Below are positions 33,001 through 36,000 of a DNA stretch of 64,000 nucleotides, in pieces. This DNA is from an uncultured Gemmatimonadaceae bacterium. Lineage in GTDB: Bacteria > Gemmatimonadota > Gemmatimonadetes > Gemmatimonadales > Gemmatimonadaceae. Where the stretch lies: positions 384,001 through 448,000 of the forward strand of contig CAWBOC010000005.1 in NCBI GenBank assembly GCA_963790305.1, written 5' to 3'. The stretch's first letter is position 1; every line of letters begins with the position of its first letter. Position numbers: made by a program.

Positions 33001-36000
33001 AGTCGGCGTGGCTTATCGACGGACATGGGGGAGGGGCACGATGTGGATCCTCCGGCGTCCGTAAGCGGAGCAGGGTCCGCGGACGCTTTCGGGCTAGGTA
33101 CTGACGAGTGTCGGAACTGCGCCGTCACCCTCGCGCTCAGGGCCATCGCCCTCTCGCGCGGGTCGTTCGATGAGCTCCTTCGCGATCGACATATATGCTT
33201 GCGCGCCGATCGAGGCTACGTCGTACAGGAGAATCGGCTTCCCAAAGCTCGGGGCCTCCGCGAGTCGGACATTTCTCGGGACGACCGTTTGGAAGACCTT
33301 GGATCCGAAGTATTCGCGAGCATCAGCGGCCACCTGGCGTGAGAGGTTGAGGCGCGCGTCGTACATGGTGAGGACGACGCCCTCGATTGCCAGGTGCTCG
33401 TTGGGTCCGCGCTGCAGAAGGTGGACGGTATTGAGGAGCTGGGAGATTCCCTCGAGCGCGTAGTACTCGCACTGAAGCGGGATGAGGATCGTGTCCGCCG
33501 CGACGAGCATGTTCACCGTGATGAGGCCGAGCGAAGGCGGGCAGTCGATGAGGATGAAGTCGTAGTCGTCGCGAACGGGCTCGAGGGCTTCGCGCATGGC
33601 GAGCTCGCGGGAGCGATGGTCGACGAGCTCGATTTCGGCGCCCGCCAAGTCAGGGGTCGCGGGTGCGACGTCCAGATGCGTGAACTGAACGGCCTTGACG
33701 ACGACCTCTCCAATCCGCGCCGCGCCAATGAGGGCGTCGTACACGGTGAGGTTCATCTGCTCGCGCGTCACGCCGACGCCGCTCGTCGCATTGCCCTGGG
33801 GATCGCCGTCGAGGAGAAGTGTCTTCTTCTCCGCCGCGGCGAGGCTAGCGGCGAGATTGACGGCGGTGGTCGTCTTGCCTACCCCGCCCTTCTGGTTGGC
33901 GATTGCGATTACACGACCCACGCGAGTAGCCCCATTCGGCTCCAGGTTCGGTCGCGGAATATAACCATCGCGACCGTGAGGCAAGCGAGCGTTTGCGACC
34001 ACGCTCAAGGTAATCGTCGGGTTGTGTCACGTGGCACACTGCGTTGAGCGTGTCACGTGACACGCGGGGTAAGGCCGCCGAGGAAACGGCCCCCCACCCA
34101 TGCCAAGCGCGCATTTTAAACAACACTATCACGTCATAATACGGCCATTATCACGTCCTATTAGCGCGCCATGAAGGCGTGAAGCCGCGCCCGAATTAGT
34201 AGCGTGTGCGTACTTAAATGAGAAAGCGACGGTTCGTGGCCAATGCCAGAGGCCATAAAAAAGGGGCCCCATTGGGGCCCCTTCGCTCATCATCCCGCGC
34301 GCCTAACGGGCACCACCGGGAACGAACGCCCAGCGGCCGCCAACCCACACCGTGAGCGTCTGCTGACCGGGCTCGATCGGCGTCTGGGCCGCCCCGACAC
34401 CCGCGTCCATTCGCATGAGTCGCTCGGCGTACACAGGCCGCACCGGTGGTGACTGCGTGTTCAACTCGAGAAGCGCACCAAGCGATCCTCCAGCGGCCCG
34501 CGCCAGCGCGTCCGCGTCGGCGCGCGCCCGCGCGACCGCCTCCGCCAGCGCCGTGCGACGCGCGGCGTCGACGTTCGACGCGAAGAACTGGATCGTGTTC
34601 ACCATGTTGGCACCCGCGGCGAGCGCGGCGTCGATCACCGCGCCGACTTGATCGAGCTGGCGCACCTCGACACGCACCGTGTTGTTCGCGACGTAGCCGA
34701 TGACCCGTGGCGTTTGTGGTCCTTCACGCGGCGGCTCCCGGTTATCGTACTCGGGATAAAGGTTGTACTCGCTGGTGCCGATCTGTGCTGCGGGAATCCC
34801 GCGTGCCTTGATCGCGTCAATGACCGCGCGCGTCTTCCTGGCGTTATCGGCCCCAGCCTGCGCCGCCGTTGCGGCACGTGTCTGCACACCGATGAGCACG
34901 TGCGCGCGATCCGGAGTCACCCGCGCTTCACCGGTCGCCGAAGTGACGATATCCGGCCCCTGCGAGGCGGAGGAGGGTGAACCTTGCTGCGCGGCGACCG
35001 GCGTCGCGGCAGCAAGCAATGAAAACAGCACGAGACGACGCATGAGAGCTCCCTGGCGAAAATGGTTCACCAAGAATCTACACTGCTCGCGTCGTCGAGT
35101 GCCTTCAGGCTAGCGTCGTGTCAACCGCCGGCGCTTTCCTACCTCGAGAACCAGGTTCTGCAGGTCGCTCGGCGACACGCCTGGGATGCGCGATGCCTGT
35201 GCCAAGGTCAGTGGCCGAATGGCCGCGAGCTTTTGGCGTGCTTCAAATGAGAGCGACAGCATGTCGTCGTACGCGAGATCCGAATCGAGAGCGAAATCAC
35301 CCATACGGCGTAGCCGGTCCGCCTGATCGCGCTCGCGCGCGAAGTATCCCTCGTACTTGATCTCGAGATCGGCGGTGATCGCGGCGTCGTCAGGCAGATC
35401 GCGTCCGACGCCGGCCGCATCGAGCAGCGTCCGCAGCGATAGATCCTGCCGCTTCGCGAGCTCTACCACCTTCACGGAGTGCTGAATGGGTGCACTGCCG
35501 GCTGCGATGAGCACATCGTTGACGACATCAGGGCGCACACTCGTTTGTTCGGCGAGGTCACGCAGACGCTCCTCGGCCGCCAGCCGCTGCTCCACGACGC
35601 ACGCCTCCTCGTCGGTGAGCATTCCGAGTGAAATGGCGGTGGGGGCCAGTCGCCGGAGCGCATTGTCCTGCCGCACGGTCAGCCGAAACTCGGAGCGCAA
35701 TGTGAAGAGTCGGTACGGCTCATCGACGCCTCGCGTCACCAGATCATCGACGAGCACGCCGATATACGACGACTGCCGGCCGAGGATGAGGGGCGGACGC
35801 TGGAGGGAAAAGAGTGCGGCGTTGATGCCGCCAACGACTCCCTGTCCCGCCGCTTCCTCATATCCGGTCGTGCCATTGATCTGTCCAGCGAAGAACAAGC
35901 CAGGCAGGACCTTTACCTGAAGCGAGGCGTCGAGCTGCGTCGGCGGATAGTAGTCGTACTCGATCGCATACCCGGCACGCGTCATCAGGACGTTCTCGAG

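Follow-up and report, generated by a model that had tools for sequence, protein, structure and literature searches.

Gene organization of the origin region

The window, i.e. the whole stretch of 64,000 nucleotides that was analysed, originates from an uncultured Gemmatimonadaceae bacterium (assembly of 4.31 Mb in 13 contigs, 94% complete, 66% GC). It contains dnaA-dnaN, a parA-parB pair and two closely spaced palindromes upstream of parA. The features were located as follows (window coordinates, strand):

2609..5328, + strand: dnaA (2609-3997) and dnaN (4216-5328)
31321..32139, - strand: M23 peptidase gene, overlapping the parB stop; operon context, outside the centromere
32136..33026, - strand: parB, 296 aa; LGRGL, GERRLRA and helix-turn-helix intact
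32523..32561, - strand: ParB recognition helix, GKDRTTIANTLRV, aligned to Caulobacter GKSRSHVANTMRL
32550-32552, 32547-32549, 32532-32534 and 32466-32468: codons of R173, T174, T179 and G201, respectively (Caulobacter numbering)
33094..33921, - strand: parA, Soj-type Walker-A ATPase, 275 aa, GTG start; ParA-family matches below curated cut-offs, synteny in relatives
34023..34038: predicted variant parS site 1 (promoter-proximal), TGTGTCACGTGGCACA, G4 in both arms, T/C at position 5
34049..34064: predicted variant parS site 2, CGTGTCACGTGACACG, perfect palindrome, G4 in both arms
34303..35043, - strand: SIMPL-like gene, upstream boundary of the 380-bp gap with the sites
35110..37038, - strand: mnmG (gidA)

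The gene order is mnmG, SIMPL-like gene, palindromes, parA, parB, M23 peptidase gene and a small gene, and the last four genes are packed closely (30874-33921). The gene mnmG is a common neighbour of parAB in origin regions; rsmG is absent between mnmG and parA here. The cumulative GC-skew minimum is located at contig position 380-400 kb and coincides with dnaA-dnaN. The gap between dnaA and dnaN is AT-rich, contains a DnaA-box-like word and is likely oriC, and the region around both genes (2500-6200) has an unusually low GC content of 49-56% compared to 66% for the genome. Due to the fact that the origin contig is unbroken for about 380 kb on one side of the origin and about 480 kb on the other, a hidden origin-proximal canonical parS is unlikely.

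The promoter and terminator scan of the locus called nothing. A GC-rich hairpin near 34258-34283, after the SIMPL-like gene, was spotted by eye and had been missed by the terminator scan. A TATATTCCGCG-like motif at 33954-33970, upstream of parA and about 55 bp from site 1, occurs genus-wide and is likely a -10 element. Additionally, perfect palindromes of 80-105 bp with ACCACAGAGGCACAGAGGGCACAGAG-like arms, possibly MITE- or REP-like, were observed on contigs C1, C5 and C9 (e.g. C1:16877, C5:28712, C5:87757, C9:326551 and C9:989637).

Two predicted variant parS palindromes upstream of parA

Both sites are 16-bp palindromes with the CACGTG core and the G2 and T3 of chromosomal parS. Relative to canonical parS TGTTTCACGTGAAACA, T4 is replaced by G (G4) in four of four arms, and as the T4 of chromosomal parS is thus lacking throughout, the sites were classed as variant parS. 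The offset between them is 26 bp. They are located 102-143 bp upstream of parA, site 1 being 102 bp from the parA start, in the slot that canonical parS occupies in relatives. Like chromosomal parS, they are present in few copies near the origin, the two copies lying 30 kb from dnaA-dnaN at the GC-skew minimum.

Genome-wide, GTGTCACGTGACAC was matched with at most one mismatch by sites 1 and 2 only, and the canonical 16-mer was matched nowhere in the assembly with up to two mismatches. The canonical 14-mer core had one match with one mismatch (C5:639916, 220 kb away) and nine with two mismatches; C5:639916 and three other one-mismatch matches to a degenerate family pattern are located within ORFs of 233-533 codons. 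According to a Markov model, 0.13 symmetric G4 sites per genome and 2e-7 pairs within 60 bp are expected by chance. In a window shuffle test (up to three mismatches), which is weaker than the Markov model, two hits were reached in 3 of 100 shuffles.

These searches returned the same coordinates as the initial annotation, which had placed the sites at 34023..34064 upstream of parA with a symmetric position-4 change in each half-site and no further variant match within one mismatch. Its statement that the genome has no canonical parS within two mismatches stands for the 16-mer and needs a qualification for the 14-mer core, for which near-matches exist. The interpretation of the pair as parS, also put forward there, is well supported by position, orthology and covariation, and the two palindromes are almost certainly the parS of this chromosome as predicted from its sequence.

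ParB and its recognition helix

Two Pfam searches of the genome revealed a single ParB-family gene, and a second, plasmid-type ParB as reader of the sites was therefore dismissed. The parA-parB pair encodes a ParB with the chromosomal-type motifs LGRGL, GERRxRA and helix-turn-helix; its sequence could be aligned to Spo0J/ParB chains of known structure, among them those of Caulobacter and Thermus. Compared to the Caulobacter protein, R173, N178, G201 and R204 are retained and Ser174 is exchanged for Thr (DRTT instead of DRST); the specificity residues are R173, T179, Q184 and G201. The hallmarks of Noc (Q173, R201, K179/K184 and chromosome-wide sites) are absent, only two sites being present, and the nucleoid_noc model scored 237 bits, under its cut-off of 315.

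Conservation in the genus and spread beyond it

The variant pair was found in five of the eight other genus genomes, and the remaining three are without assembled parA. G4 occupies 24 of 24 arms across the six genus genomes with sites, and position 5 varies freely. A conserved 26-bp spacing of the pair was ruled out by the values observed in the genus (25, 26, 26, 28, 35 and 37 bp). Symmetric G4 is retained despite ParB identities down to 76% and diverging spacers. All five genus ParBs of the paired table carry Thr179. The genome G008 of the same genus encodes DRST (Ser174) yet has four G4 arms, thus Thr174 is not required.

For the family, 401 genomes were scanned, and G4 sites turned up far outside the genus; genomes flagged as unpublished contribute to such scan totals alone. 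The parB loci comprised 145 matches in 160 chosen genomes (140 retrieved), in which G4 genera were over-represented on purpose, and a further 29 named loci; an early filter removed 11 duplicates and 11 loci lacking a site upstream, and a later one three more. For a strict set of 186 loci, eight sites with two mismatches and three loci were removed, including a false G4 call in g181. Of the 60 family genera whose locus could be read, 8 had symmetric G4 sites and 15 had at least one G4 arm. Hybrid sites, consisting of one T4 arm and one G4 arm, are common in the family and bridge both forms; the genome G012 carries a canonical pair. Of 632 arms, 489 carried T at position 4 and 140 carried G, against two with C and one with A, and the CACGTG core was nearly invariant across loci. 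T and G together account for 629 of the 632, so position 4 still seems to be read, which favours a changed read-out over a simple loss of constraint. Among the loci of other families (30 of 78 matched loci read), none of the 30 had Thr174, and 29 had a canonical-type site upstream of parA, none with G4.

The variant was also found in two further phyla. The alphaproteobacterial locus L111 has TGTGTCACGTGACACA directly 3' of parB, where a relative has a canonical site, and both site matches in the L111 genome are G4. It is the sole Thr174 and the sole G4 among 49 related alphaproteobacterial loci with a site. In the wider alphaproteobacterial family, G4 was present in one of 251 genomes (G999), and this match looks like chance because the G999 ParB has Ser174 and a canonical site lies close to its gene. 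The planctomycete case rests on two contigs. L334, whose named ParB relatives are Tepidisphaeraceae, carries four TGTGCCACGTGGCACA sites around a ParB with Thr174, a residue shared by just 5 of 118 sequences related to this planctomycete-like ParB. The planctomycete-like L284 has G4 in three of four arms upstream of parA, but encodes Ser174 and is a counter-example. The locus L059 is titled anammox planctomycete, but its ParA-ParB fall with Gemmatimonadaceae on the tree, so that the label may be wrong.

A search of metagenomes for G4-rich pairs yielded at least 123 stretches; of 79 loci examined, 32 adjoin parA or parB. Among the matches listed, 22 of 23 readable ParB helices found via the DNA pattern had Thr174, and the automatically read helices had Thr174 in 21 of 21, many of them probably kin of two sampled genera. 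Also among the matches listed, 47 of the 79 examined pairs had no parA or parB on the stretch; some may be dispersed parS and some unrelated. Intergenic pairs of the TGTGCCACGTGGCACA type with no par gene nearby were seen on L270, L275, L286, L292, L294, L302, L304, L306, L317, L320 and L333, several of which look planctomycete-like and may represent dispersed G4 parS. On L278 (2400-3120; also L307 and L313), mnmG is interrupted in frame by about 240 additional codons, made up of 237-bp repeats that bear seven G4-type palindromes.

The designation of the variant as genus-specific in the initial annotation is thus ruled out by the 8 of 60 sampled family genera and the two further phyla. Its count of five out of eight genus genomes was obtained again, and the half-variant sites that it reported proved common. 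Its figure of 32 out of 45 relatives with canonical sites and its variant sites in G012 and G143 could not be reproduced, genome labels differing between the two analyses.

Covariation of residue 174 with parS position 4

In the strict set, any G4 was present in 35 of 44 Thr174 loci versus 15 of 142 others, and symmetric G4 in 25 of 44 versus 4 of 142. The sites were all-G4, mixed and without G4 at 19, 16 and 9 Thr174 loci, respectively, and at 4, 11 and 127 of the others. The four symmetric-G4 loci without Thr174 are G008 and three g188 genomes, all with Ser174 and Thr179. Only T4 sites were found at 9 of the 44 Thr174 loci and at the actinobacterial L103. Both earlier claims about the protein, i.e. 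that DRTT goes with the variant and that DRTT is insufficient for it, are borne out by these counts. Thr174 is neither necessary, as G008, g188 and L284 have Ser174, nor sufficient, as nine Thr174 loci have canonical sites.

Kinship was taken into account with a tree of ParA and ParB without the helix columns, built with FastTree only, on which G4 and Thr174 each changed about 15 times. The Pagel likelihood ratio of Thr174 was 51 with any G4 (49 in the strict set) and 34 with symmetric G4 (29 in the strict set). As controls, 161 of 452 comparable column states were run, with a median of 8 and a maximum of 34.6; the ratio for any G4 exceeded all 161, and that for symmetric G4 (29-34) was not above the largest. 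The observed correlation was reached in none of 2497 independent simulations. In a PGLS analysis of 153 loci, T179 ranked first and T174 second of 1417 states. The independent-pairs test was not significant (3.3 pairs in the same direction, 0.4 opposite and 6.3 without difference; p 0.25), and a test of the order of changes gave a ratio of 0 for any G4 and 5.7 for symmetric G4. Thr179 as a general cause was rejected due to canonical sites at 5 of 15 Thr179 loci (L066, L396, L404, L405 and L413); Caulobacter ParB itself has Thr179 and canonical parS.

Relation to known ParB-parS systems

The locus resembles Caulobacter ParB-parS in its origin-proximal palindromes by parAB and in the retained R173, N178, G201 and R204, and differs by the symmetric T4 to G change (position 3 in the 14-mer numbering of PMC7383237). 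In that study (Jalal et al. 2020), parS preference is described as conserved in 17 ParBs, specificity is mapped to residues 173, 179, 184 and 201, and S174A is listed among the Caulobacter ParB alanine mutants. Residue 174 is absent from its main text and from what was searched of its preprint; the base touched by S174 is not stated in the literature text searched, the contacts in PMC7383237 being shown in a figure. Noc and its binding site NBS are alike in that a ParB-family protein is redirected to a palindrome close to parS by a small number of helix residues. Noc, however, is a duplicate that took on a new function and has Q173/R201, whereas the present ParB is single-copy and keeps R173/G201; moreover, position 4, common to canonical parS and the Noc site, is altered here.

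According to the sections of PMC5450999 consulted, symmetric changes abolish binding of the Burkholderia chromosomal ParB (ParBc1), except at position 1 and for T5C. In its S1 File, the probe TGTGTCACGTGACACA gave 10±1 with ParBc1 versus 55±10 for the wild-type site and 9±3 for random DNA; the same probe gave 18±8 with ParB-free extract. As canonical ParB failed on symmetric G4, some adaptation of ParB is to be expected, and Thr174 is the best candidate. The Pseudomonas-type site TGTTCCACGTGGAACA (PMC5450999) is likewise a lineage-fixed symmetric parS change with probable co-adaptation of ParB, but canonical ParB still accepts its T5C transition (43 vs 55), whereas the T4G transversion seen here gave background binding (10). 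The parSc3 site of B. cenocepacia chromosome 3, GTTGTCACGTGACAAC (PMC5450999), shares the identical inner 12 bp, TGTCACGTGACA, with the present sites, so G4 is a known ParB-readable base. Unlike them, parSc3 has other bases at positions 1-2 and is part of the plasmid-type system carried by a secondary replicon, and its ParB showed no significant binding of TGTGTCACGTGACACA in the data given (17±2, unstarred). The sites described here lack those outer bases and go with the single main chromosomal ParB, which is not plasmid-type. The literature searched contained no description of a naturally occurring G4 parS on a chromosome and none of any parS from this phylum, subscription papers and sequences given only in figures lying outside its scope. 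Judged by its sequence features, the locus would function in the manner of chromosomal ParABS and is best classified as a variant of that system.

Proposed mechanism and alternative explanations

The palindromes are probably a true parS that is read by a ParB whose position-4 preference has been widened to T or G. A single ParB dimer would load on the palindromes via its helix-turn-helix, close upon CTP binding, spread and engage ParA, as in the rest of the family and as the intact motifs suggest. The site would have been switched from T4 to G in both arms with R173 and G201 unaltered, and the exchange of Ser174 for Thr, possibly aided by Thr179 in the genus, would have changed recognition at position 4 from T to T-or-G. 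Recognition of this position would be kept and T probably still accepted; arms may have shifted to G singly before being fixed in several lineages. T and G would present similar hydrogen-bond groups in the major groove, and the extra methyl group of Thr might occupy the space vacated by the methyl group of thymine.

A genuine switch, in which the genus ParB with Thr174 and Thr179 prefers G4 and binds canonical parS poorly, so that the centromere would be orthogonal, is possible but rather doubtful. The 24 of 24 G4 arms of the genus with a freely varying position 5, the absence of a canonical site near the origin and Thr179 in all five tabulated genus ParBs speak for it, as do exclusive lineage variants elsewhere, e.g. 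17 of 17 sites GCTCCACGTGGAGC in G711. Against it, 25 of the 44 Thr174 loci are not all-G (canonical or hybrid), and G411 combines Thr174 and Thr179 with hybrid sites. Since Thr174 ParBs also occur with canonical and hybrid sites, recognition has most likely been widened to T or G. It is unlikely that G4 in a real parS is tolerated for another reason, such as another residue or high affinity, with GC pressure fixing G and Thr174 being a clade marker. The genome GC content of 66%, the hybrid or full G4 at 15 of 142 loci without Thr174 (Ser174 ParBs) and the independent-pairs result would agree with this, but C4, which GC pressure favours as well, is nearly absent (2 of 632 arms), Thr174 exceeds every control column tested, and Thr174 and G4 recur together in two other phyla where Thr174 is rare (1 of 49 and 5 of 118).

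That the pair is a decayed, weak parS, bound via half-sites or left over with the canonical site lost in an assembly gap, is very improbable. With 94% completeness and 13 contigs such a gap could exist, and canonical ParB partly binds half-sites (27 vs 55), though not symmetric G4, in PMC5450999. However, the origin contig continues without a break for 380 kb and 480 kb to either side, both Par proteins are intact, and symmetric G4 is kept genus-wide across ParB divergence to 76% identity and diverged spacers. Finally, the palindromes occupy a promoter gap and could be an operator of a transcription factor, e.g. of the CRP family, instead of parS. The CRP consensus is TGTGA-N6-TCACA, with many sites per genome; TGTG-N8-CACA agrees with 8 of its 10 positions, and 47 of the 79 metagenome pairs, among the matches listed, had no parA or parB on the stretch. 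Yet A5 was found in 0 of 140 G4 arms, the CACGTG core is almost invariant, the genome has a single location with such sites, and hybrid sites with a canonical parS arm are found at this very position, which makes an operator scarcely credible.

Possible re-coding of chromosomal centromeres

Further covariation was seen in the 49 alphaproteobacterial loci, where C3 occurs in 26 of 27 Gly177 loci versus 2 of 22 others and A5 in 4 of 5 Gln/His178 loci versus 0 of 44 with Asn178, both counts being uncorrected for kinship; both patterns were repeated genome-wide. In this group, Gly177 goes with TGCTY arms and Gln/His178 with TGTTAC or TGTCAC arms. Several parS variants, with up to 36 sites per genome, were noticed in L420-L469 (relatives of G709) and in G710, G711, G759 and G769. 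Within the Gemmatimonadota, genus g188 (L159, L416 and L418) has an N178S ParB and a single TGTGGCACGTGCCACA site with G4 and G5. L411-L415 (genus g89, another family) have Ala174 ParBs and asymmetric sites such as TGTTTCACGGGAAACA, with one Noc-like arm; such sites explain why the broad pattern missed most g89 genomes. Whether ParB-parS pairs of main chromosomes have repeatedly switched specificity without duplication via a helix code (residue 174 reading position 4, residue 177 position 3 and residue 178 position 5) is close to evenly balanced, with the chances slightly against it. If the code is true, the hybrid sites would be present-day intermediates with dual specificity, and the end states would be centromeres orthogonal to each other.

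Chromosomal parS is regarded as nearly universal. The present data suggest that this 'universal' bacterial centromere can be re-coded: a natural G4 centromere has evolved repeatedly, in contrast to the systematic test in PMC5450999, in which symmetric T4G abolished binding. The series of canonical, hybrid and full-variant sites combined with Ser or Thr offers a ready test of the joint change of a single-copy DNA-binding protein and its target, a question that ParB/Noc work approached only via engineered mutants. Orthogonal ParB-parS labelling pairs may be a further yield. For lineages with G4, the finding means that consensus scans overlook real centromeres.
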